Source: an uncultured virus (IMG/VR IMGVR_UViG_3300020576_006994)
Taxonomy: Duplodnaviria; Heunggongvirae; Uroviricota; Caudoviricetes
Strand: one strand, 5' to 3'
Virus record (IMG/VR): IMGVR_UViG_3300020576_006994
DNA length: 64,000 nt
Shown: positions 2,620-64,000 of the stretch, piece by piece
How positions within the stretch are numbered: position 1 is the stretch's first letter
How the letters are laid out: every line of letters begins with the position of its first letter
Notes under the pieces: model-generated
The model's input: only the letters and a program-made list of their open reading frames with translations
What the model was told of the DNA's origin: nothing
The model's database searches: none
Program-made: the position numbers and the translations under genes

Positions 2620-3528
2620 TTAAATTACTGACCATTCGTCATTTTCATAAACATATTCAGTCCCAACCAAGGTCCAGGAGAACTGGCGAACCAATGTCAC
2701 CCCTGGAAAGGTCGGGCTTGTGTACTCAAATTTATCCAAACGCCGATCCTTCTTACTGGAAATATCCAAATAGAAGGCGTCGCGCTTTCTGTCCTATGAG
2801 GCTAAAACCATTTGACGCACGTTATTCACAAAAACATGCTGAATTCCAGTAACGGTGCCATCTTCTGTACCAATGCTGAATTTACTCAAAGAGCTGTTGA
2901 GGGCCGTCACAATCTATTGCAACTGAGTGATTGCATCCGCGTCGTAGGTGTAGATCTATCCGCCTGAGGTGATCCGCGCCTATCTCTTTATTCCACCCTT
3001 GGTGCCGTCTTCCGAGCCTGCAATCAAGACGTTATCTGGATCCGGTTTATTGGATGGAGTTATTGCATCTAGCGCTACAGAGATGTCTTCAATTGTGACC
3101 TATGCATCCACCTATAGTCGAGTTCGTCCATCCGGACCAACAACCGTATCAACCGGGAGGCCAAATTTATTGACGAGCAAATTCCTGAGAGCCACTGCCG
3201 GGTCTTTCTGGTAAACTGCTTGCAGAACTTCGTCTGGCTTAATCAGGCGCTTCTGCTGCTGTGGCTAGAAGATCTAAGCTGAATCAGCGACCAGGTAAGC
3301 AGTTACATCAATAAAGGAATTGATGCCTTTATCAACTTGTCCGACTTGAATTGTAGTGGGAGTGACGACCTTGACTTCAAGGGTTAAAGGAGGCTGAGTA
3401 GACGAGGTGAGGGTCACCGATTGCTTGGTGAAGAATCCGGAGGCGTCTGCCACCGTGATTACGCCATCTTGTGTGCCGTTAGCCGTAAACTGCTATAAAA
3501 CAGCTTCCCAGCTCTTCTCCATCTACAT
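2620..3528 (-). CDS. Putative virion protein, 302 aa, 10 in-frame TAG (absent from the ORF track)
   Basis: AAAGGAC upstream, then ATG TAG ATG GAG AAG (M*MEKSWEAVL*QFTANG...). The frame has no TAA/TGA until the TAA at 2620-2622, just before the next gene. Confidence 0.75.
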
Positions 3529-3648
3529 ACCATGTCCTTTATCCAGCCCATGCTGGAACGGCCTAGACCAAAAAGAAAGCCTTTAGGTCCACCAATTAAT
3601 GGAATTACTAAAGGCTTGTATTCTTGCGTAAATGTTTGTATTTAGGGC

Positions 3649-4389
3649 TTATTCTGTAACAATGCCGTGCGGAACAAGGACGCCGAGAGCTGGCGAAAAC
3701 AGGGCAATTTCGTTAAGAACGGCAGAATTGATGCCAATAACGAAACCTTCGACGTTAAGGAGTGGGCCGCCTGACATTCCAGGGTAAAGAAAGCCTTTGC
3801 CCTACAGCTGGAATCCGTAGGTTGAGGTTAAAGTCACCTGATTACAGAATAGCTTATCTCCCCATGGATAACCGCAGGTAAAGAAGGGCGAACTAGCATC
3901 GTAAATTTTTGTTGGATCTGTTTCAAGGATGAGGCCATTGAATTTAGAGAAGTCTCCAATCAGAACGGCTGTGTCAGCGTGGTGATTGACACCAACAACC
4001 TTAACTGTAAGATTTACATCCTGTTTATTTTCGTTCTCGATGCGGATCGGATTTTCATTGGCAAAGCCAAGTTCATCCACGACGCAATGAGCGGCTGTTA
4101 GAGCATACCGTGAAGAAATTACAAACGCTGAACAATAAAAGCTACCATCATCGTCGGTGAGACGAAAAACCTAGTTATTAAGGGTGACGTCGTCAACTGG
4201 GCGGTCAGATCGAAACGCGGGGAGTGGCTCTTTTTGCTCCTCGGTTTGGATTGTTGGAATCATTCGCTGCATCACCGTGCCAGCTAAGCGAGGTGCCAGA
4301 TCCCATATAATTGAGAAGGCTGTTACAGCAACGACAGATAGGATCTAATAGGTTAGGATTGACGATAGACGCTTGACACTTTTCTTCAT
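3649..4389 (-). CDS. Trypsin-like serine protease with N-terminal hydrophobic segment (3 TAG)
   Basis: Read-through frame gives CSAFVISSRYALTAAHCV (catalytic His), DTAVL (Asp) and YPGMSGGP (Ser). The Ser motif lies downstream of the TAG at 3802. Confidence 0.85.
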
Positions 4390-4454
4390 TTTTCACCTTG
4401 TTTTAGGGTTTATTATGTTGTAGCATGATATGCATGGTAAATGAATCTCGTGTG

Positions 4455-4828: not shown

Positions 4829-4841
4829 AGAAGAAAAGTAC

Positions 4842-4905: not shown

Positions 4906-5529
4906 ATGTCAGAAAGTCAAACAGTAATCGACAAGCTCACGCCCGAGCAAGAGGCAATGATCCCAGTGTTTCGTGAAAAGTTCCGTGCAATCGGACTTTC
5001 AACCGAGCCAACAAACCGAGCAGAGGCAGAGCGAGCCGTGATTGACTCGTACCTGTACTTCAAAAAGCCGGTTCCGGAAGTGGTTTGGGCAAACAGCCCG
5101 GCTCACGGAGCAAAAATGGCGGCGCAGGCGCTTCACGGTCGCGAACAAGTGACGACGCAGGAGATTCAGGAGCAGGCTGGATCGGCATCTTACGGAAGCT
5201 TTGAGGCGTATTGGGTTTCTCTGTACTCTTACATTGCAAACGTACTTCCGGTTCAAAAAGACGAGCTTGCCGATATCGCCGAGCGCATCGTTACGCACTG
5301 CGGCGTGTACTGGACATTTGAGGATCTTGTAATCCTTACAGAGAAACCAAAAGAGATCCACATGAAAGACGGCAAGCTCCATCGTGAGGACGGACTGGCT
5401 CTTGTATATGGCGACGGAACTGGAGTTTTCGCAATCAACGGCGAACGCAAGGCGTCATTGATGGATGTTGTTCTTTCTGAGCAATATTCAGAAAAAGAAA
5501 CTGAAGCGGAAGAGTCGACAGAAGATTGA
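4906..5529 (+). CDS. DUF6745-like protein
   Basis: N-terminal KLTPEQEAMIP...TEPTNRAEAE and C-terminal GKLHREDGLALVYGDG...FAING pattern recalled for this family; strong RBS. Confidence 0.6.
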   Translation: MSESQTVIDKLTPEQEAMIPVFREKFRAIGLSTEPTNRAEAERAVIDSYLYFKKPVPEVVWANSPAHGAKMAAQALHGREQVTTQEIQEQAGSASYGSFEAYWVSLYSYIANVLPVQKDELADIAERIVTHCGVYWTFEDLVILTEKPKEIHMKDGKLHREDGLALVYGDGTGVFAINGERKASLMDVVLSEQYSEKETEAEESTED

Positions 5530-5581
5530 TTTTGGTATAAAATAAAAGGAAATAGCGCCTTAGGGCAGAAAGCAGGAAATT

Positions 5582-6661
5582 GTGAACATTGCGACTTTTA
5601 AGCGAATTGCACCAATTCTTTTCAAGCACAACATCGTTCCGTATCTTCACGGCAATCAAGGTCTTGGCAAGACCCAGGTGACCGGCCAGATCGCGGACAT
5701 GATGAGAGAGATGCGCGACGACAAGAACTTCGGATTCATTCCGCTTCACTTGGCTACTCAAGAAGTCGGCGACTTGGTCGGCCTCTTAGTTAAAGATGAT
5801 GCTGGAAATGTGCGACATGCACGTCCAGAGTGGATGCCAACATCAGGCCAAGGTGTCGTGTTCCTTGATGAAGTGAACCGCGCTCACCCCGAGGTCTTGT
5901 CTTGTATGTATAGCTTCTTGACAGAGAAGACTATCCACTCGCACAAGCTCCCTGACGGATGGGTGATTGCAGCGGCTGGTAACTACGACAGCAACCGATT
6001 CACAGTCACGAACACAAGCGACACTGCATTCAAGAGCCGATTCTGCCATATTGATTTCGTTCCTTCAGTAGAAGAGTTTGTAGCGTTTGCTGAAACTCGT
6101 GGAGCCAAAGACGTTGCAGCCTTCATTCGAGAGAATCCCACTCTTCTTGAAGCAAAAACAGATGCTGGGCAGTTCAATGTTGCCCCTGAACCAGATCGTC
6201 GAGCTTGGCTCGAAAAGCTCGCTCGCCTTGAGAGTGAGGACCTTGGTGATGCACGTTTTGAGGTTTATGCTGGCTGTATCGGAACGGCAGCAGCTGCAGC
6301 ATTCATGTCTTGGAAGTCGAAGCCGGAGCGTGCAATTTCGATCAACGAGATCTTGACAAACTACAAGACGATCCAGGCTCGCGTCTTGAAGATGTCAAGC
6401 ACCGAGGAGGGCAACGAGCGTCGATTTGATGCACTAAACCAGCCTATCGACGAGCTTATGTCGCGACTTGAGTCAGAACAGACCCTTCTCGAGGATAGGA
6501 CAAAGCTCGAAAACATCAAGCAGTTCTTGATTGATGTTCCACGAGAGCTGGCACTCAAGGCATTCAACCGGATGGGAAAAATTACAATCTTCTCTGGTAA
6601 GAATGATATCTTGAATAATCCGGAATATGTTGCTAACTTCAAGAATAACGCAACGAAGTAA
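5582..6661 (+). CDS. MoxR-like AAA+ ATPase
   Basis: Walker A GNQGLGKT, Walker B VVFLDEVNRA, IAAAGN sensor and AFKSRF arginine finger; adjacent to a VWA gene. Confidence 0.85.
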   Translation: MNIATFKRIAPILFKHNIVPYLHGNQGLGKTQVTGQIADMMREMRDDKNFGFIPLHLATQEVGDLVGLLVKDDAGNVRHARPEWMPTSGQGVVFLDEVNRAHPEVLSCMYSFLTEKTIHSHKLPDGWVIAAAGNYDSNRFTVTNTSDTAFKSRFCHIDFVPSVEEFVAFAETRGAKDVAAFIRENPTLLEAKTDAGQFNVAPEPDRRAWLEKLARLESEDLGDARFEVYAGCIGTAAAAAFMSWKSKPERAISINEILTNYKTIQARVLKMSSTEEGNERRFDALNQPIDELMSRLESEQTLLEDRTKLENIKQFLIDVPRELALKAFNRMGKITIFSGKNDILNNPEYVANFKNNATK

Positions 6662-6676
6662 GGGAAAGGGCATAAA

Positions 6677-7837
6677 ATGACTATGTCGAATCAGGCCAAG
6701 GTAATGTCTTTCAAGGATCAATTTGAGGGAGCTATCTATAGTCTTCTGTCTACAGAGCCATTTTATGCCAATTTTTTACTAAACTCTCGGCTGATTATTG
6801 ACTCACCGAGAGTACCAACAGCTGCTGTTTCAGTGATGAACGGAACTCCAGTGATTATGTTCAATACCAAATGGATTGCTGAGTCTGCACCTACTGTCCT
6901 CAATCTGACTGCAGTAATTAAGCACGAGATTCTTCACCTATGCCTTGATCACCTGGATAAGCAGGTAAAAGATCGCCTGGGTGGAGCGGTAGACGCATAT
7001 GTTTGGAACATTGCTCAGGACTGCATGATTAACCAAGAGATCAGTCGAGGACTTCCTGAAGGATGCGTCACTCTTGAATCGCTTGAAAAGGTGGTAAAAG
7101 AGAAGCTTCTCCCTCGTGAAACTTCGCACTATTACTATGAAAAACTAAAGGACTTCAAGCAAGAACTTGAGGATGCGTGTATTAAGGCGATGGATGAGCA
7201 CGGGTCCATGGAGGGAACTCCGGAGGAAATGCAGGCTGCGGTGTTCAACGTAATGCGACGGGCAGCTAATGCCTCTGCTGGAAACGTTCCGGATCCACTA
7301 GTTAAAGCGCTTGGCGCAATGATGAAAGATGCTCAGATTCCATGGCGCCAGGTTTTATCAAACTTTATCGCCAGAGCGGTTAGCTCGAGCACTCAGAACA
7401 CAAGGAAGCGGATCAATCGACGCTTTGAGCTTGATGCTCCAGGAAAGAAGAAAAAGCGTGAGCTTACTCTTGGGCTATGCATCGACTCTTCTGGTTCAGT
7501 GAGTGACGATATGTTCGCCTCGCTAATGAACGAAGTGATGCACATTATTCCAAACTCAGCGCTGTCTTACTTGATTCAGGCGGATTGCGAAGTTCACAAG
7601 ATCGAAGTGATCAGAAAAGGAAAGAAGCCGGCCTTAGAGCGTGCAGGCAATGGCGGAACGGCTTATCAGCCTGCAATCGATGCTTGCATGGAACGAAAAT
7701 GTGACGCAATCATTTATTTGGGTGACATGGACTGTGCCGACACTCCAGTTGATCCAGGAATTCCGTTCTTGTGGGTATCAGTTGGTGGTAACATGAAAGC
7801 TCCAGGCAGCTTTGGACACGTAATTGGGATTTCGTGA
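6677..7837 (+). CDS. DUF2201-type metallopeptidase-like + VWA protein
   Basis: PTAAV...KHEILH (HExxH), WNIAQDCMIN, MIDAS motif IDSSGSV, GNGGT and YLGD. Confidence 0.85.
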   Translation: MTMSNQAKVMSFKDQFEGAIYSLLSTEPFYANFLLNSRLIIDSPRVPTAAVSVMNGTPVIMFNTKWIAESAPTVLNLTAVIKHEILHLCLDHLDKQVKDRLGGAVDAYVWNIAQDCMINQEISRGLPEGCVTLESLEKVVKEKLLPRETSHYYYEKLKDFKQELEDACIKAMDEHGSMEGTPEEMQAAVFNVMRRAANASAGNVPDPLVKALGAMMKDAQIPWRQVLSNFIARAVSSSTQNTRKRINRRFELDAPGKKKKRELTLGLCIDSSGSVSDDMFASLMNEVMHIIPNSALSYLIQADCEVHKIEVIRKGKKPALERAGNGGTAYQPAIDACMERKCDAIIYLGDMDCADTPVDPGIPFLWVSVGGNMKAPGSFGHVIGIS

Positions 7838-8216
7838 TGGAAATCAGACGTCGGGCTATTTGCTATCACGTAAGCCAAGTGAGGATATGGGATGTTTTGT
7901 TCGAACGAGATTGGGTGGAGCTTGAGGCCGGTGTTACTGGTCCACTAGAAGAGGGCATTTACTTTATGCTACATGGAATGAGCTCCATCTCTAATTGCAT
8001 GCAAGAGACAAGACCGCTATGGCCACGCTGAAAAGGGAGGCAGGTGGGATCCGGATGGTAAAAATCTGGGACACGCTGCTAAACAGTCAATGGCAAGGAG
8101 TGGCTCACGATGCAACTAGCACAATCCTTTTTCATCTTTATAATGAAAACAGACGAATTTTTGACCATTTAAAAGCATTATCTGCAGGCGAGCTCAGACA
8201 GCAACCTCTGCCCTGA
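7834..8216 (+). CDS. Two small hypothetical ORFs (7834-8031 and about 7995-8216)
   Basis: Translationally coupled to the VWA gene; both contain a V(R/K)IWD(V/T)L...W pattern. Confidence 0.45.
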
Positions 8217-9060
8217 TTGTAGGGTGCGGATCATAACCCTAAAGAACTAGATGCTCCATCTTAATGAGATCAATGTCTTGGGGGCAGTCCGGCGACAAAC
8301 AAAGAGTCGGCTCTGACTTAAGTTCACGAGACAGCATCTCTCTGCATTGCTCAATGTGATTTGAGTAAATATGCGCATCGCCAAGCACATGAATGAACTT
8401 ACCAGGTTTTGCCCCAACTGCATGAGCTATCATGATTAGCAACAGTGAATAGGAGGCGATATTAAACGGCACACCAAGAAATACGTCCCCTGATCTTTGG
8501 TACATCTTGAGATCAATGCAGTCTCCACGCTTATAAAGCTGGAAAGACATATGGCACGGAGTGAGCTACATCTTATCAAGATCCTGGACCTGCCATGAAT
8601 CTACAACAATTCGTCTACTGTCTGGGCTGTTTTTGAGTAGATCAATTGCTTCTGCCAGCTGATCGACGTGAGTCTCAATAAACTGCTCTTCGTGGCGAAA
8701 GCCACTTCGTCCTAAAACCGGCACCAGGCTCTTAACGAACCTAGATGCCCGCCTCCATTGCTTGCTGTAAATAGGGCCGAGGTCGCCATCCGGTTTTGCC
8801 CATTCATTCCAGATTGTAGATCCCATGGCCAACAAATCATTGTTGTTCGTGGACCCAGAGATCATCCAAAGAAGTTCTGCTGCCATCGACTTAAATGGCA
8901 CGCGCTTTGCCGTTAACAGTGGGAATGACTGCGATAAATCAAAAACCATTTGCGGAGCGTCAAATACAGAGATTGTACCGACGCCAGTTCGGTCTTTTTT
9001 TTCGATTCCGTTCGCCAAAACATATCTGACTAAATCAAGGTACTGGTAAGTTTGGGTCAT
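8194..9060 (-). CDS. thyA: Thymidylate synthase (288 aa; TAG at 8566 and 8239)
   Basis: KDRTGVGT, FPLLT, ELLW, GDLGPIY, PDSRR, DKM*LTPCH (catalytic Cys), YQRSGDVFLGVPFN, GDAHIY, and the C-terminus L*GYDPHPTIRAEVAV-TGA. Confidence 0.95.
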
Positions 9061-9124
9061 GGCTTCCTTAAGGGAGTGAGCACTCCCCATAAAATATTGA
9101 TGAAAGGCCGGGCATCAGTGTGTG

Positions 9125-9661
9125 TCATTTGTTTCTTAGGTATGATGTCATTCCATACCAATCTTCATAAGAAAAATTATCTTTTTTAGATTCATTGCAA
9201 CGCCAACAACAAACAACGCAATTATCAGTGCTGTATCCTAATTTGTTGTTTTTTCTATCTAAATTATAGCTAGATCCGTTTTGATTTAAATTATGTTCAG
9301 CCCAAAAAACAGACTCGTTGCAATAGTGACAATTTTTAATTTTAGTAAATTCTAAAAAATTTTCAAAAGATAAAACGGTTTGCTTGCCTTCTCTCTTGGC
9401 TCTATAACAGAAGGTAGTATATAGCGCCCTAAAGGGCTCTTTTCTGTTTTTTTGTCCTCTTAATAACGCTGCTGTTTTATCTGCACAGTTTCTGCATTTT
9501 CCAGAAACTTTTTTAATATCAGACTTTCTTAAATGAATTTCTTCTCCACAAGAACATAAGTAAACAAAAACAGTTTCTCGTTTTTGGTACTTTCCTTTTT
9601 GTAAGTTTTTTCTTACATATTTATATGTCCTAATAGGGTCTTTAAACTCCACAGACCCCAC
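9125..9661 (-). CDS. HNH-like homing endonuclease between nrdJ and thyA
   Basis: CSCG...CRNC, CHYC and LDRKNNKLGYSTDNCVVCCWRCN motifs; visibly AT-richer than its neighbours. Confidence 0.8.
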   Translation of the reverse strand: MGSVEFKDPIRTYKYVRKNLQKGKYQKRETVFVYLCSCGEEIHLRKSDIKKVSGKCRNCADKTAALLRGQKNRKEPFRALYTTFCYRAKREGKQTVLSFENFLEFTKIKNCHYCNESVFWAEHNLNQNGSSYNLDRKNNKLGYSTDNCVVCCWRCNESKKDNFSYEDWYGMTSYLRNK

Positions 9662-11267
9662 CTACGCACTCTGCCTCATATTCCTCAAAAACAGTTCCTT
9701 CTTTATTTAGAGCTTCTTTTAGGTCTACTCTAACTAATGGCTGACCTTGACGGCAGCCGTCTGGATATACAGTAAATCCACGCAGTCGTTTTGCATATTT
9801 AAGCAATGCGTCTGCATTAGTCTTTACGGTGCTGTCGTTGTTAGTCTCAGATCCCCAAGCAGGCATGTTACATGTCGAGGAGATGGCCATGTCGACATAT
9901 TGCTGAACGTCAGCTTGAAACTTAACTCTATCCTTAAACGAAATATCATAGGAGTCGATGATCGCTTCAGCCTTGACGCCCTTCTCTAGAAGACGTTTAA
10001 CCTATCCATCCACAACATACTGATACATCCATTTACCGTCCTTGTAGTAACGTCGCTTGTAAGCCTTACAAAACAGAGGCTCAATTCCTGTCGTGGTTTC
10101 GGCGATAATTCCAATTGTTCCCGTAGGAGCGATCTATCTTACACCCTTAGGAACCGCAACGCCTAGGCGCTTAGCTCCGATATATGCTGCCGAGTCAGAC
10201 TCGCGCTCATATGTAGCCAGCCACTTGTGAAGCTCTGGAACGCACTGATATTTATGGCCGCGAATCATTAGCCACTCGTGCATTCCGCCCAATCCAAGAC
10301 CAATTCTGTTGTTCTTTGCACCGACTTCTTTTACTTTATCATTTGGTACGTCGCTGTATATGCCGCCACAAAGAAGAAAAAGTGTTGAGAATTTTACAAC
10401 CTCTGCAAACTCCTCTTTAGTATCACAGCGATTCATCCAGACAGTTCCGAGGTTGCATTTATCTGAATCATCCTCGCTCACTACCTCACAGCACTAGTTA
10501 CGAAGAGATTCGGCGTCTTTTCTAAAATTGAACGACATACCCGGCTCTGCTGTGGAGAACGCCTGTGCGCAATTATCTAGCCAAACCTTCATTGCCTTTT
10601 GATGGTCTGGGTGATCTTCGTTTTCAATAGCAATAAAAAAATTAGTGTCGTAGATTACAGAGATGTTGGTTAACTCCATCGGCAGGCGAAAATTAAAGTC
10701 CTTCTCTTTCATTGCCTTGAGCTCTGGCGAGTGGTCTTTCTAGTGTATAAATTCGTGAACATCTTGGTGAGACCAATTAAGTCCTGCCCAAATCTAAGAT
10801 CGGCGCTGACCTCCCTGCATTACATGACGACCTGATTCATTCACCATCTCCATAAGAGAGATTGGCCCTGTACAAAAGCCGCCCGTTCGCTTGATCTGTG
10901 CGCCCTTGGGTCGGATATTTGAATAATCAACTCCAATTCCACCGCCAGTGAGCAGCTACGATGTAGATCGTTGCATTAATGATGCCCAGTCTTCACGAGT
11001 ATCCTCTGCGCGATATAAGAAGCAGTTATTTACTTGGTGAAAGGATCTTCCGGCAGAGTACAAGTATCGGCCCCCAGGGATAAACTTCCTTTCTTTCATG
11101 AACTTTAAAATCTTTGCTTTTTCTTTTGAGTCAAGCAGTTGACCACACACGGCCTGAACCACACGCTCGCACGTATCGGCCCAGGTCTCTGTCTGATTCA
11201 TTGAATATTTCTGCAAAAAGATGTCGTGGGCGAACTTATTACCGAATACGTCAAACTTAGAAGTCAC
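9642..11267 (-). CDS. nrdJ: Class II (B12-dependent) ribonucleotide reductase, 541 aa, 6 TAG
   Basis: One frame joins four ORF-track pieces: FIPGGRYL, NNCF, TGGGIGVDYS, QGGQRRS*IW, LRN*CCE, CNLG, R*IAPTGTI, TTGIEP, GFTVYPDG and C-terminal CVGGVCGV. TAG at 10956, 10794, 10740, 10494, 10134 and 10002. Confidence 0.93.
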
Positions 11268-14142: not shown

Positions 14143-14171
14143 TTGACAGAGGGTTTGGATTTGGATATAGT
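14143..14171 (+). promoter_or_regulatory. Sigma70-type promoter of the HNH gene
   Basis: TTGACA-17 bp-TATAGT. Confidence 0.75.
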
Positions 14172-14187
14172 GAGGATAGAGGAGAGT

Positions 14188-30490: not shown

Positions 30491-31064
30491 TTCCGCCCTC
30501 CAGCTCTTGTTGTAGCGCAATTGCTTGATTATGCGCGGCCAAGGCCTTGTTTTTGTGCTGATGCATGCGATCATCAAACCAATCAAGCAGGCCAAGCATT
30601 TTCTTTCTTGCTTCTTGATGAATAGGATGCATTTGTTTTAATGGGACGCCCTGACTAACCTGAAAAGCTAGATGGGGCGCATATCTTGAGTCAAGAAATC
30701 TTTGCCTTTGGTCTTTAAGCTCTGCGTGCATCTTTGAGTGCATCTTTGCTTCTTTAGCTAGATTATGTATCTGCTTTGAAATCTTTTCACGATACATATC
30801 GACTTCGTTATTTACGTTCGGAAGGAGACGGTTGTGCTCAGATTTAAAAAGAGACTCTTCCCATTGGATGTCTTTGTCTAGCTTTTCTGCCATATGCTGC
30901 GCTACACCAAAGTGTCCAGCCTTAGAGAGGACATTCCATTGGCCAGCCTTGTCACGAACGGCAACCATTGCCTGTCCACCTTTAGTTATAAGCTTAAAGA
31001 CCTCGCCTTTACGGCTGATCCCAATCTTACAAATGTCTGAAAAGTGCTCCTATCCTAGATTCAT
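30462..31064 (-). CDS. Hypothetical protein (200 aa, 1 TAG)
   Basis: ATG overlaps the upstream TGA; KLITKGG motif; LFKSE. Confidence 0.6.
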
Positions 31065-42200: not shown

Positions 42201-42548
42201 GCCACCGCTAAAACTTCTAGTTAGGTTACTTAACAGCTATTCTTTGTGTTTGTCTGGGTGTTGGCGCCGCCAGAACTAGAGATCTTTTTCTGAGCTTCCA
42301 GGAGTGAGCGCCTCAGCTCTGAACTTGCCCTACAGTTTCTAAAACTGACCACCAATCTTAGGGTCATCACCTGGCTGACGATTTTTATAGTCGATTACGT
42401 CCGCATCAGAAATCGGAACCACTTCCTAGGTCCTATCGCGATCTGCGCCTGGAACGTTAGGCAAAAGGATGCCTGGTTGCTTTTTTTCAAGCTCCTGCTG
42501 TACCTTCTTTAAAATTGCCGCCTTAATGAGCGATTGTAGTTTCGACAT
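39213..42548 (-). CDS. Polyvalent protein: zincin - GNAT - ART (YHGT type) - ART (R-S-E type) - GNAT (1111 aa)
   Basis: Single frame through TAG: REHEGNH...KEEIA; HQGMGLGTKL; AYHGT...GTGIYAST...AGFDGI; LLHRGM...SSWTP...EHEVIV; EQGRNYGKSLY. Confidence 0.75.
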
Positions 42549-48716: not shown

Positions 48717-48730
48717 AGCTTACTCCTTAA

Positions 48731-49546
48731 TTATTTTAAAGCAATCTTGATAACTGTTTCGTTTCGTTTCTTTCCGCCAACAAAGTATTCGCTGACAGCA
48801 TTCTGTTCTGATTTGGTGAGGGTGGCGAGTTTCTTCATATCGCCAGCTACTCCCCGAAGTCGCGCTTCTAGCTCTCGGTCATCGATCTGTGGAGATTCAG
48901 ATTTCTTCAGCTCGTCTCCACGAGGAACGATGTCAACGCTAGTTACAGCCTTAGCCACAGGACGGCGAGCGGCTTTTTGTACCAACTCCGTCATTTCCTC
49001 AAAAGCCTTAGACAGTTTTGAAATCTGTTGTTGTGCTTCTGCGAGATCTTTCTGTGTCTTTTTCAGCTCTTCCGATTCTTCTTTTTCTGATTTGCCCATA
49101 GACATCTCAGGTGAAGCTTCGGGTGCAGGAGCAGATTGATCCATTTCTGGAGCTTGCTCAGGCGGAGCTTCTTCTTGGGGCTGTCGCATTTGCATTTCCT
49201 GCATGATAGCTTCATGCAATTCTTGCAACATGCTGTCGTCCAACTCTTTTACCATATCAGCTAAGCCAGCGCCTTCTTGGGGAGCTTCAGGAGCTGCATC
49301 CATTTCTGGAGCAGGTTCAGCCGGAGCTTCCATTTCTGGAGACTGGTTTTCGTAATGCGACGAAGATTCGTCGTCTTTTTCAAGTTTAGAATCTTCTTTC
49401 TTCGACTCTTCCTTGCTCTCTTCTTTCTTCGACTTCTCTTCTGATTTATGAAGTTTTTCAACTTCAGCTTTCAAAAGTTTATCGATTTCTGCAGTTGCTT
49501 CCGCGATGAGAGCCTGGACGTCGAGTGCTTGTGCTGTATTAGACAT
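48731..49546 (-). CDS. Putative scaffolding protein
   Basis: Acidic, coiled-coil and Pro-rich; multiple xKSE motifs; immediately upstream of the capsid gene. Confidence 0.65.
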   Translation of the reverse strand: MSNTAQALDVQALIAEATAEIDKLLKAEVEKLHKSEEKSKKEESKEESKKEDSKLEKDDESSSHYENQSPEMEAPAEPAPEMDAAPEAPQEGAGLADMVKELDDSMLQELHEAIMQEMQMRQPQEEAPPEQAPEMDQSAPAPEASPEMSMGKSEKEESEELKKTQKDLAEAQQQISKLSKAFEEMTELVQKAARRPVAKAVTSVDIVPRGDELKKSESPQIDDRELEARLRGVAGDMKKLATLTKSEQNAVSEYFVGGKKRNETVIKIALK

Positions 49547-49573
49547 ATTGTACCTCGACAATCCTAAGAGTTA

Positions 49574-50047
49574 TTATTGACCCGACATTGGCCACTTGAT
49601 GTCTGGCATCAAATCGCCTTGTTTTGTTGCAGTTGCAACCGAACCATCAGCCGAGAACATTGCAGCTGTAGGCTGAACAGTGTTAGCAGTGAGGTAGAGC
49701 TCTGAACGCAGACCTGCGCGACCGAGGTCAGAAGCGATTTCAGCCCAACGGAGCGACGAGAGAACCGCGATTCCAGCGATTGTCGAAGATTCCATGATAA
49801 GCTGACACTTCATCGGCGAATAAGCAGCTTGTGCTTGGCCAATACCGTTGTCGAATTGCGTCTCTACACCGAGAATTCGGATGCAGATAGCTGCTTCGCC
49901 AGTTGCCCAGGCAGAGTCCTGGTTAATGACGAGAATTTGACCTTTTGCATCACTTGACTCGCTGAAGAGCCACGTAGCGGGGAATCGCTTTTGCAGGTCT
50001 CCTTTGAGTTGCTTAATCAATGATTGCGATTTTGCGAGTGCAGACAT
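49574..50047 (-). CDS. Putative head structural/decoration protein (157 aa)
   Basis: AAGGAG RBS, TAG-free, in the capsid operon; motif variant TTA-N10-GTAATA at 50136-50154. Confidence 0.5.
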   Translation of the reverse strand: MSALAKSQSLIKQLKGDLQKRFPATWLFSESSDAKGQILVINQDSAWATGEAAICIRILGVETQFDNGIGQAQAAYSPMKCQLIMESSTIAGIAVLSSLRWAEIASDLGRAGLRSELYLTANTVQPTAAMFSADGSVATATKQGDLMPDIKWPMSGQ

Positions 50048-54117: not shown

Positions 54118-54536
54118 GGTAGAAAAAACCTCTTTCCACTCTTAGGCTATACAGTCTGGAAATGAACCCACGTTGGAGTTGCAGAGAAGTCCTCACACCA
54201 GAGGCCGACTTCTTCTAAAACCTAAACATTATCCTTGATCCACTTCTGAAGCTCGCCTTTTGGATCTGATACGTCACACGCTTGGCCAAACAAGTGCTTG
54301 GATGCCATCGGAATCCTAAGCTCTTCCAGCCCCTGTTTTTTTCGCTTCTAGTTTATCTCAGAGTAAATTCGCTTATGGTCAAACATGGATCGATAGCCGG
54401 ACGAAATCGTCATCGCCTTCGCCCATTTCTCACGAATAACGTTTACACGCCTCTTAAGCTCTTCAAGATTGTGCTGATGCTCAATCGGAACATCAGAGAT
54501 CAGGGTCTGACCAAGGAGTTCTTTGGTTGAGATCAT
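54114..54536 (-). CDS. M15-family peptidase (putative endolysin), 140 aa, 3 TAG
   Basis: ISSGYRS...SKHLFGQACDV...WVHFQ; the Zn ligands lie downstream of the TAG at 54348. Confidence 0.85.
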
Positions 54537-56518
54537 GTCTTATCTTCTTTTGATCCAGTAATTGCGCCAAGAATATCATCAAGCGAACGTTGAGCTTCCT
54601 TCTCAAAAGACTTCATAATGTCTTTTTTCACCTTCTCGTACTTGCGATGAAGCTCTTTTCTTTGCGGGCTCTTAGTCTCAGATTTATTAAGAAGTGACCC
54701 AAGCTGAGAGATTGCGCCGTCAAGCTCCTGTGTGTCCTGTTGCGGCTGCTGCTCTTGGCCCTGACCTTGCTATTGCGTCTAGTTTGGATCCTGCTGTGGA
54801 CCCATCTATTGCTGCATCTCCATTTGTTTTTTCATCATATAAACCTGAACACTGGTTGGATCATTCATGCAGTATGACAGGTCTGGATCCCTATCGGCCT
54901 GCTCAAAACCCTTACCACCCAAAGCCTTCAGGATTTGGCCTTTTGTGTAGTACTTCTCGAGTACTCCCATGTATGCTGGATTTAAAGGAAATGCGCCACC
55001 GATTGGAAGCTTGTCTTTTTCGACTCGCTCCATAATGTCATCCATATTAAGATACAGATTTGCATCTTGCTGAAGGCGCGTAGCTTCTTTTTCCGGAGAG
55101 TCCTAGTCTAAACCTTCAAAGTCAATTCGAAGGTACTTGGCCCAGCGCTTACTAATACGAGGAAGGAGGCGCTCGTTAAAGAAATCTTCGTAAAGCATGA
55201 GTAGTGGGCGAAGTCCTGTATCTCTGGCGGCAATAAGCTTGAATTCGTTATTGCTCTCAGACATTGCCTGGCTATTTGTTCCGCGAGACAAGTATGAAAG
55301 GGCTGCAACTTCGTCGGGTGACATCTGGAATGCAGCAAATATCATTCGCTTGTTCAGGTCGGCAAGGTATTGGAATTCCATATCACGGTTGCCGCCATCG
55401 AGCGGAACAGTTTCGACAGAGTCAGTTGGCTTAATGCCAAATACCGGCATTCGATGGGCCGAGTTTACAGAGTTAATGTGGGCTGCCATCTGGATGCGGA
55501 TATTCTCAATATCCTGCTTCTCAAGGTCTTCCGACTTAAAGACAAGGGCCGTTCTTGCCTAACGACCGTTAATGAAATACATCTTGTTCTGGGTCGTAAG
55601 ATTGATGTGCGTTCCAATTGCCGACACGATGCGCTCAAGCGGGCTAATTGGGTAGCCTTGGCGATTGATGTCGGTTGATGGCGACATTGACATAACAATA
55701 CACTCATCATCAGTAAATACCTGGTCTGGTCGACCGTTAATTACCTGAGCCCATGTATATTCATCATTTTGGAACTTAGAGATATCAATCTTGTGACCCT
55801 GAAGCTGCTCAAGAATGCGCTTAGACTGCACGCGAATATTTTCAGCTTCGCGACTCTCTCCACCTTGTGGAGTTGTGCGAAATACAGTTCCGGCATCCAT
55901 TGCCCTAAATGAATGGAATTGCTGATTTGAGTCACGACGAAACTCAACGGCAAACTCGCCAAACGTTAGAGCGTCTTCAGCTGTTTCCATTACAAATTGA
56001 GCAAGCGTTCTTTTTTCTCGATCTCGGTAGGACTCATTGGTGCCGCAATTAAGCATAAGCTCTCGAACTTGCGGAACCTCTTCCTTTTTTAATTGGTCAA
56101 TTTCCTGTTCGTTAAGCTCTGCGTGCGCCTCCGGCTTAATATTGACAGAAAAGCCGATGTCGAATCGGTTTGCCCGTGGACGAGCAAATAAGGACAGCTG
56201 ACGAGCCCTTGTTGGCAAAATAACTCCACCAACTAATTCTTCTGTATTTCTTACCTGCTTAAGGATCTCAGGAGGAATAAGGCTTGTCTTTTTTCTGTAA
56301 ACAGAGGCAAACTCTTGTGACTTCTATGGATCAGAGTCGATAGAAAGCTTATTGACCATCGACCGATCTTGGGATTTCTTTAATGACTCGAGAACGCTTC
56401 CAAGCAATGATTGATCTTGATCCTGACTAGCGGAAGAGAACATTCGATTGCCGGCACCGAAAGCCTCTATATTCATAATCGAGGAATCCTGTGTAGACGG
56501 AGTCTTTTTTGATGACAT
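54533..56518 (-). CDS. Portal protein (661 aa)
   Basis: Four ORF pieces in one frame; DALTFG, YPISPLE, YFINGR*ARTALV, DMEFQYL, AFQMSPDEV, GLRPLL; ends in an ATGA overlap. Confidence 0.85.
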
Positions 56519-56520
56519 AA

Positions 56521-57558: not shown

Positions 57559-59394
57559 TTAAATGTCCCAGTAAAAACCGCCTTTTTTCGAGGACTTAGT
57601 CACTTTATTGCCACCCAAATCGACGATGGTTTTTTGGATTTCATCTTTAAGCCAAACGCCCTGTTCATCGCTTGTGTAAGTTTTACCAACAGACGTATCC
57701 TGAATGGGCACGGCTGAGACGTGAACCTCGCCTCTAAGCTTCCATCGATTCTGTGCAACGTAAGAAAGAGCATCGTGACTATCGTCGTAAGTCTTCTAAA
57801 CTTCTTCCGTTAGTTTTCCATCACTAGATTTTTTGAAATGATATTTTTCAAAGTTGTCAACAAGAGACTGCGTGTTGCCTTCAAGACCAAAGAGCTTAGT
57901 GTCGCCGTAAGGTGGGGACATCTTGTATCGGATGAATGCATGTCCGGCGCTAACGTCTTTTTTGAAAATAGCTCCGACTCTCACCTATCTGCCGATCATT
58001 CCATTGGTAGACGGATCTTCTGGATCGCAGTAAATAATGGTAAAATCATAAATGTTATGCAAACTCTTAACGAGGTCTACTTTTTGCGGTGGCTCAAGGC
58101 CACTGACCTCCACAGACCTCATTACGTAGGCATTGCCTCTGGCATCCTCGTAGACGATAACGATGGCAGTTGGGTGAGTGTAGCCGTGGTCAAGTCCTGC
58201 GTACCGCTTAACTCCTATCTTCTTCATCTGATCAATAAGGACTTGTTCTGAGATCTACGTTCCTGGATCTTCACCCATGAAGATAGTCAGCATCTCTCTT
58301 GGAGTCTTAATGAACTTTGTTCTGTCAAACCTCGGATAAACAAGGTCATCTGCAGAGGGTTGCATAGACATCGACTGAGACAAAAACCAATCATAATTCG
58401 ATTGTTTAAAGTTCGATATTGTGGCTTGAATCGGCCTGAGAGCTTTACATTTAGAGGTTTGCTTCTTGGCATCGCCTGCGCACACCGCTCTAAGTGGGCA
58501 CTCAATGCATTTCTCTTTGGCGATAACTCGCTCGTACCTTATTTGCTGTTCTGGCTCCAAAGCCAAGTAATCGTCTTTAAGGAGCGCTTTATTTTCCTAT
58601 ACCGATACAAACATCTCCAAATCTTGAGTTCCAGATCGACTATCTGGACACCTCTGCGTGTTCTCAAACACGGTCCAGAATTTGAATTTGGCTCCAGTTC
58701 GCTCTCTTTCATCGTATTCTTTTTCAATTACCGTATGTCGACCTTTTCTTGACGAAATACCGACTTTAACCCAAGGAAGCCCCTCCTCTGTATAAGAGGG
58801 AACTCCGGCAATGTCTGGATAGGCGGCAACCTTGTTGGGAGCAAGGCTTCCGAGCTCATCAATTGTTACAATTGGTTGGTGAGCCCCTTGAACTGACTAG
58901 GCTGTGAGCGCAAGCACTTCAATGCTTGATTCTTTTCCATTTACGCTCAAGTTCGTAATGGACATCTTAGGCTCTTCTTTAAGATGCTCTGCTATATACG
59001 GCCTAGAGACGAACTTCTTAAAGTACACGTACTATCGATTTGCCTGATCCTCGGTTCCGCCGAAGTGAACAACGCCACGGCCAAAATGAAGCGGCATTAG
59101 GATTTGAATAACAGCACAGGAAAGTGTTTTTTGCGAAGATCGGCCTGCGATATAAAAATGAGATTCAGGCTCGTCCTGGTTTGTCTACCTTAAGCAAAAA
59201 TCATAAACTTCCCACACCATATCCAGTGGATTTGACGTAGAAAATCTAGACACAGTACAGTCCTAAAGGTCCACCTCTAGAAATGTCTTGCACCACTGTC
59301 GAAGATGCTATTTATTCTTAAGCCTCTGAAGAAGCAATCGACGCATTATCTCGTCTTTGTTGCCCTCGAGAAGCATATCTTGATTATTGCTCAT
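57559..59394 (-). CDS. terL: Terminase large subunit (611 aa)
   Basis: Walker A IAGRSSQKT, Walker B IVTIDE, VYPRFD, AGLDHGYTHP, YCDPE and DDSHDALSY, all in one frame through TAG. Confidence 0.9.
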
Positions 59395-59971
59395 CCTCGC
59401 CTGATAGACGCTTCAGTAAAACGTCCTGGAGTTCTGGAGTAAGAACTTCAATTGTTTGATTTGACTGAACATTAATATTTTGCTCAGTTTTGATTTTTTG
59501 AACTCTATCTTCGCCAGTTAGTTTCTGTAAAATCTCTATGGTCTCTTTGTACGACTTACTTCCATGGATCCAAGTCTTTGGCTTATCTTCTTCTTTTCCG
59601 GTTTGAATATAACGAAGAAGCTATTCATTTTCAGACTTGTGATACGCCTGAATGATATTCGTGACGTGATCAAGGGATTCCAGTTTTTGATTCAAAAGCT
59701 TGATTTTGATCTTTTGTGTCAACGACTGAACATATTCTTCTCTCTACTCGTCCCATCTATTTCGAACTCGGCAATAAACGACGTCTTTTTCGGTAATGCC
59801 TTGATTTAAGTTCTAGATCTCAAGACACGTAGAGCCGGCAACAAATAGATTGAGCATCTCTTTTGAGAGAGATGCAGAGATTGGCCTCGCACCGTTATTT
59901 ACGGCGTCCTCATATAGTTCAAGCTCTCGACTTGAGAGGTACTTATCCTGGGCCTGCAATTCATTCTACAC
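59384..59971 (-). CDS. Putative terminase small subunit (start uncertain)
   Basis: HTH-like LFVAGSTCLEI*NLN...NRWDE and helical C-terminus; overlaps the terL start. Confidence 0.6.
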
Positions 59972-60365
59972 TTTGAATCTCTTCGTCAAAGATAACCTTG
60001 ACCGACTAATCCTTCCACAGAAGGTTTCTTGACCACTGAACTAACAAATCCTTGGCTTTTTGCTTTGCATCCTACCGCTTCCACGGCGGCATATCAATTA
60101 GGGCTTGGATGTAGTTAGTCTTTACAATTCCAGTTCCTGACTTGAACCGAAACCTGTCTTTTGTCATTATCTTAAAGATGACCGTTTTTTGGTCAGGAAT
60201 AACCTCAGCAACGCCGCCGAGTGAGTACTCGGAACAAGCTACGGTATAGCACTTAAGCTGATGAGCTATAGAGTCATGCAGCATTCCATATTGGAGAAGC
60301 AATAGCTTACCTAAAAGGAGCTGATCGCTTAAGACGTCTTCATTGCCTCTTGAAGGGTTTTCCAC
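59961..60365 (-). CDS. Hypothetical protein (134 aa, 2 TAG)
   Basis: Frame continues past the TAG at 60072 to the TGA at 59961. Confidence 0.55.
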
Positions 60366-61312
60366 ACTGCCTCTTTATCTTCTAGCTGCTAGACTTCGTA
60401 TACATATTCTTTTATAGCCTAATCCAGCCCACCAATGGCTTCGATATCGATAGATTTTGAAGAAAATTCAAAATTTTCCTTAAACTGAAAAGTTACTCCA
60501 GAAATTCCTGAATAAGCCAACTCGACCTAAGCCCTCTGACTCTTTGTTCCTGTAAACTTTACAATCAATCGATCACCAGGCTTCATGCCTGGCGGTATAA
60601 CTGGATCAGATTCTGGATTGGCATCCACTGACCAAAAGCACTTAACGAAGGGTGAAGTGCTAACTGAATTAATTACCATCATCTCTTTTGTATCGAAAAC
60701 GAATAATCTTTTGTCGTGATTCTATTCAGACGAAATGAGCTGCCTGGGTGTACCTGGATACCAGATCTTATCCTAAATAGTCTACTGAGTGTGGATGTGC
60801 CCAGAGATTATTTTTTCGTACTTTATTCCAGAAAAATCAAACCCGTCTGGAGCATAAAACCCATTCTCAAACTTAGCGCCATCGAAGGTTTGATGGCAAA
60901 AGAGAATCTTACCTGACTTAAGCTTTGATAAAAACTGGTCTTCGTCTTTATGAAAAGAAAGGGCATGGACTCCGTCTTCAATCTCAAAAAGCGAATTTGG
61001 GTTAATCACTGTTAGGTTTTTAATGCCATACAGGGCTTGATCTACCTAATTAACAAACTAATTAGATGGAGAAATGCCGTCGTGGTTCCCAACCAAGACA
61101 TAGACCGGAAGCTGCGCCTAAAGCTAGGACATGTTCTCCTGAACAACAGACAAGACCTCTTGTCGAACTACCTAATGTGTATGGAACAGGTCACCAAGAA
61201 ACAAAATCTAGTCGGCCCCATGCTAGATCTTAGCTGCTTCACTAAAAATGGCTTTGGTGTCTTGAATATTGTTGACCTGAGCATGCAGGTCTCCGACTAT
61301 CTAGATTTTCAT
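60329..61312 (-). CDS. Metallophosphoesterase (SbcD/Mre11-like nuclease), 327 aa, 14 TAG
   Basis: MKI*IVGDLH, D*ILFLGDLFH, LVGNHD, LFCHQTF, ISGHIH and WYPGTP. Confidence 0.9.
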
Positions 61313-61602
61313 CCCTCAGATGATACCATTACTAGTGCCTGCTTTGGAACCAGTATGAACTTTTTACCGTCATCTTCGTAAATTTTACGTGCGTGAGCTG
61401 TGCCATCAAGCTCCGCCAGAACGAAAGCTACATCACCCTATTTATAATCTTCAGAGTCAAACACAATCTTAGTTTTAACTAGATCGTTACGGAGTCGATC
61501 TGTTGTCTAGAACCGAGAAGTGGTCGCCTCGGGTTTTACCTTGTGCTCCAAAACTAGTGGCTCTAAAGCCACCAGTCCATTAAGCGTCTTTGTAGATTTC
61601 AT
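61309..61602 (-). CDS. GroES-like (co-chaperonin fold) protein, 97 aa, 2 TAG
   Basis: TLNGLVALEP...YK*GDVAFV...DGKKFILVPKQALVMV is reminiscent of Cpn10; weak similarity. Confidence 0.45.
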
Positions 61603-62638
61603 ATGAAAGCTCTCCTTTTAAAAGCAAAATCTTTCTCTGCAGGAGGCTAAGCTCCCTCTATGCATTTAATATCTTATTCCTAATGTCGGATTCAATTGCC
61701 AAGTCTTCAGGCGAAGCTGCTCGATACTAAATATCAGGCTCTAAATCTTCATCTGAAATATGCTCATGCCGCAACGAATCTGATCCAGCACCGTAAAAAG
61801 CCCGCTCGTCAAGCGACTTATACGCTCCGGGATTTCTGATCTTAGTTACAACCTCAAAAAACGCTTCATCAGTAAGATCAAGCTATTCTTGAAGCTGTTC
61901 ATCTGTCTATTCTGGATTTTCTTCGAGAAACCTTACGGCCTGAAAAGCCTTGTCTGAAACCTTAGAGCTGTACGTCAGGTGACTAGATGCTTCGTGGTAG
62001 TATTCCTGAAGGTACTTGTTCATCCACCCGTTTGCCATAGAGATGAACGCGTCTTTTTTCTATTGATCAGGAACGTACTTATCGACAGCACTGAACAGCC
62101 CAAGGTTGGCCGTCTATACAAAATCTTCCATAGAGGCTCTAGCTCCTAGCTATGGATTCTTTTTTACCATGGAGTAAAATACCTTCTATCTGTGCATAGC
62201 CAAATATAGAGATGCCGAAACGATTTCCTGCCTCTTGCTGGAGATATCAGCAAGAATCTGAGCAAGCTCTGACTTGTTTGATGAATCTACAACTCTTGAC
62301 ATCTAGAACTTACAGAAGTTAAAGTTTACTGGAGCCTTATATAGCTCTTTTGAGTTCATTCTTTGAATGTTTTTTGAAACAGGTCCAAACTTTTCGTCTC
62401 GTATCCTGAAAAAGATGCTTGATTTACCCTGATAGTCTTTGTCTTGATTTACTGTTCTGCAAAAAGTATCATAGATCTACTTCCCAGCCAAACTCTTCCG
62501 AAGAGTTTTCTAGAAGAGATCTTCTAGTTTCATCAAGTCCTTAAACATCTTGAGCATCTTAGTTGAATCAATTGGCGCAGACCCAATCTCGCTCTTAAGC
62601 TCATTTGCGTATGAATGCAAAAGGTCTTTCTCGCTCAC
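61580..62638 (-). CDS. Phage sigma70-family factor lacking region 4.2 (352 aa, 11 TAG; absent from the ORF track)
   Basis: Region 2: RQEIVSASLYLAMHR*KVFY...MEDFV*TANLGLFSAVDKY...FISMANGWM. Region 3: KSLDE, SPED. Ends shortly after LSLLQRKILLL. Confidence 0.75.
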
Positions 62639-64000
62639 TGAACCCCCATCTTAGACGAATGCACGTGCTGCACCGGCCCTACCTACTGGTAGTATTTAGC
62701 TCGCTCATCTGCATGTCTCTTTAAGAGCGGTACATTTGTGACCCTAAAATCAACTATCTTACAAGAAGTCTTGCCGGTCTCTTTGTGAACCCTAGTACTT
62801 CTTCCAATTGCACCCTGCTTAACCTTTGTTCCGGCCTTATTTGCCTGCCAGTTTATCGTAAGACGAACTGGTAGGAAATTCGTTCCAGTGCTTACAGCAC
62901 TCGTGCCCACAACGCATAGAATTTTGCCTTGATTGAAATCATCGCATATAGAAGTAACATCAGAGTCGCCACAGGCATAAGCATACTCAACCTGAAGGCG
63001 TTTTTTAAGGAGCTCTTCTTGACCATGTTCATCTACCAGCACCAAGACTGGCATTCCTTTTTTTACCTATTGATTAACCATCTGCGAAATAATCTTCGCA
63101 ATTCCATCATTTTTGTAAAAATGCTCTTGGTTCATCTTTACAACGTTATCTTTATTCTAGTACTTTGACTTAGATTCAATGTCAATAACCATCGTATCAA
63201 TCTTTGCCAGATACCCCTCAGCTTGCGCTTGCTGTATAGAATATTCAAAAACCTGTTTTCCAATGATCGCCTCAAGCATCAAGTCCCGTCCGTCGTTTCG
63301 CTCTTGAGTTGCCGAAACAAACCATCGATACGGACAATGAGCTAAAAGACCATGGCAAACCTTCTCAAGCATCTACTAGGGAAGAGAATGACTCTCGTCG
63401 GCAATAAATACATCGTATTGCTTAAATTCCTCTGTAGCCTCTCCCTCAACTAAAGACAGGCTCTTTCCAACTGAAATCAAAAACTGCTTGCCAACTTGCT
63501 TCTTGCCGGCCCCGAACATGCCAACGCGCTCTTTTCCAAGAAGATGACATGCATCATTATAGATCTGCTCGGCAATGGACTTTGAAGGTGTACAAACCAC
63601 ACAACGAAGTCCGGTCTTTTTAAGTAGACTAATAATTACATTAGTTTTTCCAGCTCCGGTTGCAATCTCGACGTGGGAATGTCGATTCTAGAGAAGTGCA
63701 TCAAGTGCCTACTGCTGGTAGGGCCTTAAAGAAAACTCCGGAATATTCTTCCATGGAATCAACTTGAACTCAGGGGCAGCAACTTCATCGATAACGCTAG
63801 AAATAAGATTGTGGCGCCTAAGAAGATCAGCCATGCCCTAATAAGTCCAGAATCCATTTTCATCCTCCATCAAAAGAGTCTTCTTGGATTCAGCGGTCAA
63901 CCTATCAATCTCTTTCTAAACCCACTCTTCGCCGAACCTCATAGTGTAATACGGATTCTTCTTCAAGCCTTTTAGTTGGTGAAGAACCGATTTGTCCTGA
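62635..64000 (-). CDS. Superfamily 2 helicase (5' end outside the window)
   Basis: LRPYQQ*A, IATGAGKT, IADESH, VSAT, STGTN and QGAIGRSTR; TGA overlaps the sigma GTG. Confidence 0.9.

Follow-up and report, generated by a model that had tools for sequence, protein, structure and literature searches.

In-frame TAG is a sense codon, very probably for alanine, in an uncultured contractile-tailed phage

Among phages whose genetic code differs from that of the host, only a change of TAG to glutamine or of TGA to tryptophan is reported in the passages used from Borges et al. (bioRxiv 10.1101/2021.08.26.457843), which also describe crAss-like phages that have replication genes in the standard code and recoded structural and lysis genes. 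A suppressor tRNA(CUA) was detected in 40-52% of TAG-recoded phages, according to excerpts of two studies (Borges et al. bioRxiv 10.1101/2021.08.26.457843; Cook et al. 2024), and an excerpt on huge phages reports TAG as reassigned with the residue left unresolved (Al-Shayeb et al. 2020, PMC7162821). Here we analyzed a 64,000-nt stretch of DNA from an uncultured Caudoviricetes virus (IMG/VR IMGVR_UViG_3300020576_006994), below called the window, which is part of an uncultured contractile-tailed phage and in which TAG inside genes is a sense codon that very probably means alanine. Such a code had been proposed, and considered new for phages, in an earlier analysis of the letters of this DNA (below, the sequence-only reading). 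The literature searched agrees, as its passages contain no report of TAG=Ala in phages, only TAG as glutamine or an unresolved residue, although supplementary tables could list other residues.

Stop-to-stop open reading frames (ORFs) with a length of >=150 aa span 0.44 of the window in translation table 11 and 0.85 when TAG is read as sense. The control read-throughs gave a coverage of 0.56 with TAA and 0.61 with TGA as sense, showing that the sharp rise is specific for TAG, the sole stop that interrupts the genes. A greedy, non-overlapping set of ORFs with TAG read through consisted of 80 ORFs with 20,189 codons, of which 222 are in-frame TAG, and all of them end at TAA or TGA. In-frame TAG is present in essential genes such as those for ThyA, ribonucleotide reductase (RNR), the large terminase subunit (TerL), portal and helicase, the frames of which are open to TAA or TGA. 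Genes were named by Pfam and PHROGs searches, and these upheld the names given earlier to ThyA, class II RNR, portal, TerL, metallophosphoesterase, SF2 helicase and the sigma-like protein. The main TAG-bearing features are as follows.

2620..64000, minus strand: stretch using in-frame TAG as sense, 222 TAG in 80 ORFs, majority of genes on the minus strand
8194..9090, minus strand: thymidylate synthase ThyA, 2 TAG (8566-8568 and 8239-8241; Pfam PF00303, E 1.7e-98)
9642..11267, minus strand: class II (B12-dependent) RNR, 6 TAG
54533..56518, minus strand: portal protein, 6 TAG (Pfam/PHROGs)
57559..59394, minus strand: TerL, 9 TAG (PHROGs)
59384..60097, minus strand: small-terminase-like (TerS-like) ORF, 5 TAG
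60329..61312, minus strand: metallophosphoesterase, 14 TAG, the gene richest in TAG (14/31 Ala-type codons)
61580..62638, minus strand: sigma-factor-like protein, 11 TAG (PHROG 351)
62635..63966, minus strand: SF2 helicase, 9 TAG (Pfam)

Four-base overlaps of the type ATGA, GTGA or TTGA join 11 consecutive gene pairs. The sequence-only reading had placed nine read-through ends at ATGA or GTGA overlaps, and eight of these sites stand (26186, 33664, 36833, 39213, 54114, 54533, 61309 and 62635); at 31061 the overlap with the next ORF is 37 bases instead of four. The TAG coordinates it quoted (8566, 10794, 10494, 10134, 61301 and 63373-63378) coincide with TAG positions in our translations, as calculated from the gene ends. 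Its description of the recoding as window-wide holds with one restriction: several long genes are free of TAG, namely those for sheath and major capsid, ORF 529-2610, a scaffold-like ORF and, on the plus strand, the AAA and VWA genes. The use of in-frame TAG as a sense codon in the window is thus confirmed.

This was further supported by IMG/VR contigs from another assembly, here called twins, that correspond to window positions 47.3-63.2 kb (L001/L002) and 17.1-32.5 kb (L065) and are 97.6-99.7% identical to the window. Over the 9,864 codons covered, 109 of 111 window TAGs are kept in the independent twins, hence the TAGs are not assembly errors, and the twin loci likewise require read-through of TAG (coverage 0.37-0.50 without and 0.84-0.86 with it). 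Outside TAG, the codon differences between window and twins are synonymous in 261 and non-synonymous in 106 cases, showing that the genes are under selection. Differences at TAG itself are few (n=4, two to CAG and two to GAG) and do not discriminate between alanine and glutamine, since TAG cannot be reached from any alanine codon in a single step.

With TerL as the query, 70 homologs were retrieved, the majority of them 45-58% identical, and their alignment was used to scan IMG/VR and JGI contigs, resulting in loci of up to 159 kb. Nine relative contigs were taken whole; three that are 99.9% identical (G004, G009 and G010) were treated as a single relative, and so were L012 and L018. In the relatives (L003-L027, G002-G010) coding coverage without read-through is 0.75-1.00 (0.85-0.94 for loci >5 kb), and 6-18% of their genes end in TAG. 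The two most complete syntenic relatives measure 154-159 kb, and in the larger (G005, 159 kb) the gene order of the window is matched across ~36-97 kb. These contigs show TAG recoding to be specific to the lineage of the window, since the closest relatives found keep the standard code.

To find the residue at TAG, the 80 window ORFs were translated with TAG as X and compared with the relatives by tblastn, which aligned 158 TAG positions, 156 of them to residues. The probability of a relative's residue given the window's residue was learned from the sense codons of the window in the same alignments, and each column counted as one observation. Over the 156 columns alanine fitted best (0 nats), followed by Ser (-23.8), Gln (-38.3), Thr (-59.7), Lys (-64.6) and Glu (-64.9), with all remaining residues at least 59 nats worse. 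When columns were bootstrapped 2000 times, alanine came first in 1983, serine in 9 and glutamine in 8. In a leave-one-codon-out control 60 of 61 sense codons were named correctly; only ATG was missed, as it has no synonymous codon to learn from. Sense codons that are rare, for instance AGT (28.6) and ATA (20.5), have margins comparable to that of TAG. Tabulating the residues at TAG, a check suggested by the sequence-only reading together with the comparison of coding density described above, thus points to alanine by 23.8 nats over serine.

The best conserved positions gave the same picture. Strongly conserved columns, defined by >=80% agreement among four or more relatives, contain TAG in 18 cases, and the conserved residue is Ala in 12, Gln in 2 and Glu, Gly, Leu and Pro in one each. 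Conversely, at the 198 columns with a conserved alanine the window has 155 GCN codons, 12 TAG, 9 Ser and 5 Val, so that TAG is the commonest apparent replacement of alanine. In TerL, columns 44 and 121 are Ala in 50/70 and 55/70 homologs, and in portal, columns 320 and 472 are Ala in all 11 relatives each. Likewise, Ala is found at columns 112 (9/9 relatives) and 151 (8/8) of the sigma-like protein, 197 (8/8) and 300 (7/8) of the helicase, 95 (14/16) of the TerS-like protein and 88 (4/4) of ORF 2620-3528. In RNR the G005 ortholog, which is 73% identical, has S, A, L, A, A and A at the six TAG columns, and solved structures have A/S/S, A/T/V, P and T/C/A at RNR TAGs.

Several assignments made earlier from knowledge of protein families could be followed in these alignments. 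The TAG in the ThyA motif MAL(P/A)PCH (X175) is Ala in 3/3 of the PDB alignments shown, at an invariant site and independently of the relatives; the other ThyA TAG (X284) aligns to N, D and E. Alanine was also right for the sigma motif MHRXK (8/8 relatives), the TerS motif EIX (14/16) and the first TAG after helicase LP (8/8). It failed in the metallophosphoesterase motif MKIXIVGDLH, where five relatives have L and one I, and for the TAG of a predicted transmembrane helix (VSXVLHGAL) no relative aligned among those compared. The counter-examples that the sequence-only reading had pointed out itself are real, as sigma EDFVXT is Gln in 8/9 relatives and protease GDALXK is Gln in 4/7. Taken together, the alignments indicate that TAG is very probably read as alanine in the lineage of the window.

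The same meaning was encountered in other phages. IMG/VR was scanned with a tRNA pattern (GGGG start, TAGCTCA D-arm, CUA anticodon loop and GGTTCRA T-loop), which returned 74 loci, mainly tRNA-Arg(UCU), with ten tRNA(CUA) among them. G3:U70 and A73 occur together with a GGGAGAGC D-arm in two of the ten, which share 85.5% identity and both adjoin a normal tRNA-Ala(UGC). With a second pattern eight other CUA tRNAs with the GGGAGAGC D-arm were found, none of them with G3:U70. The two Ala-type genes are located as follows.

G012 (115.7 kb; L247/L303), locus 3001-3075: Ala-type tRNA(CUA)
G013 (135.4 kb; L279/L306), locus 3001-3076: Ala-type tRNA(CUA)

Both contigs make heavy use of TAG inside genes (656 in 31,844 codons in G012, 398 in 40,106 codons in G013), and the window's TerL has no match in either. 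In G012 TerL, whose homologs include T5-like phages, the TAG columns reach Ala in 110, 101, 98, 95 and 89 of 110 homologs, and Ala is the top residue in 6/15 columns. In G013 TerL it is the top residue in 12/22 columns, with Ala in 109, 93, 88 and 87 of 116 homologs, and the column with 109/116 lies in the Walker-B DE-AA-F motif. As judged from these alignments and tRNA genes, TAG=Ala together with a CUA tRNA of alanine identity exists in two other phage lineages. The locus of G012 also contains ~30 tRNAs within 6 kb.

The ten closest TerL relatives of G012 have Q at the TAG columns or, where the residue is not Q, often A, and this Q presumably reflects automatic translation by code 15. Correspondingly, the database TerL of the twin (P0001) has Q at all 9 TAG positions, where the twin DNA keeps nearly all window TAGs, and P0071-P0080, P0191 and P0192 have Q at columns where the query has TAG. 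The entries P0001, P0071-P0080 and P0191-P0192 therefore look like mistranslations by table 15.

Further contigs of the window's lineage were sought in several ways. A capsid scan returned the twin contig only, alignment scans with GroEL-like and RecA-like proteins from relatives gave no additional recoded contig, and neither of the two tRNA-pattern scans gave a contig of the lineage. A scan with the 12-base repeat described below found the twin and one contig that matches window proteins in repeat ORFs only, and a scan of genome-assembly contigs yielded one 7.7 kb contig, and none further of the lineage. This contig (L296, JANWVB010000055.1) has a TerL 48% identical to that of the window and is filed in a Patescibacteria metagenome-assembled genome, a filing that may point to the host or result from faulty binning. 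A cta-anticodon candidate at 44881-44955 of the window, one of 27 weak matches inside genes in a relaxed ARAGORN search, was rejected owing to its poor cloverleaf.

TAG accounts for 13.2% of all GCN plus TAG codons in the window, and we regard it as highly probable that it is a minor alanine codon with about that share. Its use is uneven, as it is abundant in replication and transcription genes (helicase, sigma-like, RNR) and absent from the major virion proteins. Sheath, capsid, ORF 529-2610 and a scaffold-like ORF are TAG-free (P 6e-8 to 9e-3), as are the plus-strand AAA and VWA genes, and TAG is over-used in the metallophosphoesterase (14/31 Ala-type codons), the sigma-like (11/37) and TerS-like (5/11) genes and ORF 2620-3528 (10/30). 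The features without TAG, and this last ORF, are as follows.

529..2610, minus strand: tail-fibre-like ORF, 693 aa, TAG-free (PHROGs; 0 TAG vs 57 GCN, P 2.7e-4)
2620..3528, minus strand: ORF of 302 aa with 10 TAG, without family match
4906..7837, plus strand: TAG-free block of a DUF6745 protein, a MoxR-like AAA ATPase and a VWA/DUF2201 metallopeptidase-like protein
18525-18989, minus strand: tube-like virion protein, TAG-free (PHROGs)
19003-21813, minus strand: tail sheath, TAG-free (PHROGs; 0 TAG vs 115 GCN, binomial P 6e-8)
47325..50047, minus strand: major capsid protein (47325-48716), scaffold-like ORF and 157-aa ORF, all TAG-free (capsid 0 TAG vs 58 GCN, P 2.4e-4)

Release factor 1 terminates more readily at UAG when a T follows. 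In the window T is the next base at 10.6% of TAGs vs 17.6% elsewhere, and A at 36.7% vs 29.2% (chi-square P 0.02), and the low T weakly hints at competition with release factor 1.

A number of observations weigh against alanine, or against our account of how it is inserted. Neither ARAGORN nor an Rfam E-value scan detected a tRNA in the window, and the twin contigs gave none either, so a CUA tRNA was seen in neither window nor twins. The residues aligned to TAG are Ala in 25% of cases, compared with 41% for true alanine codons, and a mixture fit of the TAG columns gave Ala 0.73, Gln 0.16, Lys 0.06 and Asp 0.04, where control samples of true Ala, Gln, Ser and Glu columns were assigned to one class to at least 0.995. 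Some conserved TAG columns are not alanine, namely metallophosphoesterase 177 (Q 10/12), sigma 175 (Q 8/9), TerL 29 (E in 14/17 relatives), column 198 of ORF 42553-43434 (P 5/5) and column 103 of ORF 43449-43856 (G 5/5). Among the TerL homologs, too, E or D stands at column 29, and likewise at column 380. All four differences between window and twins at TAG go to CAG or GAG, which taken alone fits glutamine equally well. If TAG is counted as alanine, the TAG-bearing genes have 711+156 = 867 Ala vs 735 in the relatives. Finally, GCN to TAG takes two or three base changes, yet many old alanine sites are now TAG, and this distance requires a long history or a Ser or Glu intermediate.

Some of these points can be softened. 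In the metallophosphoesterase the TAG is directly preceded by a Q in the window (GHIHTQX vs GHIHxxQ), and at sigma column 175 the relative judged by eye to be closest there, G004, has Ser. Where alanine is tolerated, TAGs probably still arise by single changes from CAG, AAG and GAG, which would make TAG sites younger than GCN sites, and young TAGs one step from these codons would explain the quarter of columns that resemble Gln, Lys or Asp. A comparison of amino-acid composition with the relatives was uninformative on the residue.

The explanation that best covers these results, and which we hold with considerable confidence, is that amber no longer terminates in this phage and that TAG is a minor alanine codon in a lineage-specific phage code. 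The proposed reader of TAG is a tRNA(CUA) with G3:U70, the identity pair for alanine. Since the anticodon is not recognized by alanyl-tRNA synthetase, the host enzyme could charge such a tRNA unchanged. Having found no tRNA in the window, we infer this decoder, and it would most likely be encoded in the phage genome outside the window, by analogy with the unrelated TAG=Ala phages G012 and G013, which carry such a tRNA. Decoding of TAG would compete with host release factor 1, and this competition may account for both the avoidance of TAG in the genes of highest expression and the scarcity of T after TAG.

The alternative that survives best is alanine at TAG with a decoder supplied by the host, the phage mirroring the code and codon bias of a TAG=Ala bacterium. 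We consider this possible though unlikely. It would account for the lack of a tRNA in the 64 kb window and the twins, and the relatives carry at most one tRNA (tRNA-Met). TAG is also found in genes that are usually early (helicase, sigma-like, RNR), so a decoder is needed from the start of infection, and TAG avoidance in the most expressed genes resembles ordinary rare-codon bias. However, all relatives found use the standard code, G012 and G013 carry their own Ala-type CUA tRNA, the window covers under half of the genome size of the relatives, and the scarce T after TAG suggests, weakly, competition with a release factor. Nor is a TAG=Ala bacterium named in the passages of the literature searched, which also included Shulgina and Eddy 2021 and a 2026 jumbo-phage survey.

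Doubtful, in our estimate, is ambiguous decoding, where TAG gives mostly alanine with a share of glutamine or other residues through near-cognate reading or a second suppressor. The mixture fit, as compared with its pure controls, is what such decoding would produce, and two conserved-Gln columns have TAG with no Ala among the residues listed there. On the other hand, the non-Ala classes are Gln and Lys, with codons CAG and AAG one step from TAG, and an Asp/Glu-like class, and young TAGs at Ala-tolerant sites suffice; CAG/TAG and GAG/TAG polymorphisms are in fact seen between window and twins, and both Q columns are softened by the neighbouring Q and by the Ser of G004.

Glutamine, as in the 'code 15' phages (crAss-like, Lak and others), is very improbable as the residue, even if public pipelines translate the twin TerL with Q at its 9 TAGs, two of the four window-twin differences (CAG/TAG) would be synonymous, Q is conserved at metallophosphoesterase 177, sigma 175 and portal 583, and the mixture has a Gln-like share of 0.16. 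Glutamine lies 38.3 nats below alanine and won 8/2000 bootstraps. It would require a change of Ala to Gln at the 12 conserved-Ala columns, where no Gln is among the residues listed at the 198 such columns, TAG is found at 2 of 86 conserved-Gln columns, and the ThyA motif MAL-PCH would become MQL. The TAG columns thus do not align to glutamine as table 15 (TAG = Gln) would have it. Serine is equally improbable. Seryl-tRNA synthetase likewise ignores the anticodon, and serine is both the second-best fit and the second commonest aligned residue (0.106), but it is 23.8 nats below alanine with 9/2000 bootstraps, and none of the 18 strongly conserved TAG columns falls on a conserved Ser, although there are 145 such Ser columns. 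That the TAGs are real stops of a decaying phage or an assembly artefact has nothing to recommend it beyond the genes broken by table 11, and it is next to inconceivable given 222 TAG and zero TAA or TGA within the same frames, frames that end at four-base overlaps with the next gene, 109/111 TAGs kept in a second assembly and 261 synonymous vs 106 non-synonymous changes.

Joining the reading of TAG as a lineage-specific alanine codon with the findings in G012 and G013, we think it probable that TAG=Ala is a recurrent phage code, described nowhere in the literature searched, in at least three independent, unrelated lineages (this phage, the T5-like G012 and G013), that it depends on G3:U70 amber suppressors, that the database proteins are mistranslated with Gln, and that here TAG is a low-efficiency codon that competes with release factor 1 in early-type genes and is avoided in the major virion proteins, rather than a late-gene switch.

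Other genes and repeats of the window were noted as well. The larger proteins outside the genes above are as follows.

31061..33667, minus strand: ORF of 868 aa with 20 TAG, kept in relatives, without assigned function
39213..42548, minus strand: polyvalent protein, 1111 aa, 14 TAG (ART-PolyVal and GNAT matches)

They belong to a series of very large, poorly annotated proteins at 31061-42548 (868, 527, 488, 192, 598 and 1111 aa), the last of which resembles the 'polyvalent' proteins of large phages, and the series is partly paralogous in relatives, where 92.2-92.9 kb of G007 matches two of its members. Three genes are HNH/homing-endonuclease-like (9125-9688, 14143-15204 and 45649-47226), and the 525-aa product of the third has 9 TAG and also a weak Mom-family match below the Pfam cut-off. 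An acidic 374-aa ORF at 26955-28079 matches the Pfam minimal CRISPR polymerase domain (mCpol) over residues 17-104 (E 2.2e-7). Homologs of the AAA and VWA genes of 4906-7837 are present in G005 at 128.9-131.3 kb, non-syntenic and with 31% and 28% identity. All large relatives encode a GroEL-like chaperonin (56-69% identical mutually) a few kb past the position of the window end, e.g. L062:1736-3559 and L038:464-2275, and any copy that this phage may have is outside the window.

Two kinds of repeats were seen. An 83-base direct repeat (51430-51512 and 51713-51795, 84% identical, 283 bases apart) is located around the plus-strand ORF 51296-51793. A 12-base unit, with the consensus AAGCTGATCCCC or its complement, is repeated in tandem in 13-29 copies in four intergenic arrays (4480-4810, 16063-16268, 44437-44785 and 52833-52990), which could be protein-binding arrays. 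Similar arrays are suggested in G004 (~68.8-69.1 kb) and G007 (first 250 bases) by tblastn of ORFs from the repeat regions, and the 12-base pattern matches 23 times in an IMG/VR contig of 83 kb that is otherwise unrelated.

Recoded phage stops mean TAG=Gln or TGA=Trp or Gly in the literature covered. If TAG is alanine in these phages, glutaminyl-tRNA synthetase and its properties do not dictate which residue is chosen, and the choice points instead to the synthetases that ignore the anticodon (Ala, Ser and Leu). Since gene callers hard-wire TAG=Gln, standard pipelines would mistranslate such phages, and database proteins would show Q where the phage makes A, invariant active-site alanines included. 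The presence of TAG in replication genes and its absence from capsid and sheath is a misfit with the published 'late-gene switch' model, and this phage offers a second system for testing that model.

TAG means alanine in some chlorophycean mitochondria, which thus share both codon and residue with the window; theirs is the code of a eukaryote organelle, not related by descent and without conflict between the codes of phage and host. Laboratory alanine amber suppressors are made by changing the anticodon of tRNA-Ala, and they show that a tRNA with G3:U70 accepts alanine even when its anticodon is CUA. Their mechanism is the one proposed here, but they are engineered, whereas G012 and G013, though not the window, have natural phage genes of this kind. 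As in the code-15 phages, amber has become sense in ordinary genes where close relatives are standard, and CUA suppressor tRNAs are the proposed agents there as well, according to the passages used (Borges et al. bioRxiv 10.1101/2021.08.26.457843; Peters et al. PMC9523058); in our reading, TAG stands here for alanine and not glutamine. TAG is likewise sense outside the crAss group in the huge phages, as far as described in the excerpt of Al-Shayeb et al. 2020 (PMC7162821), and here the residue could be resolved by 156 columns. Unlike the late-gene bias of crAss-like phages, as given in the sources used, TAG is found in replication and transcription genes and the major virion proteins are TAG-free, which is the reverse distribution. 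Our results support alanine as a third residue meaning for recoded phage stops, and so a variant of known stop-codon recoding.

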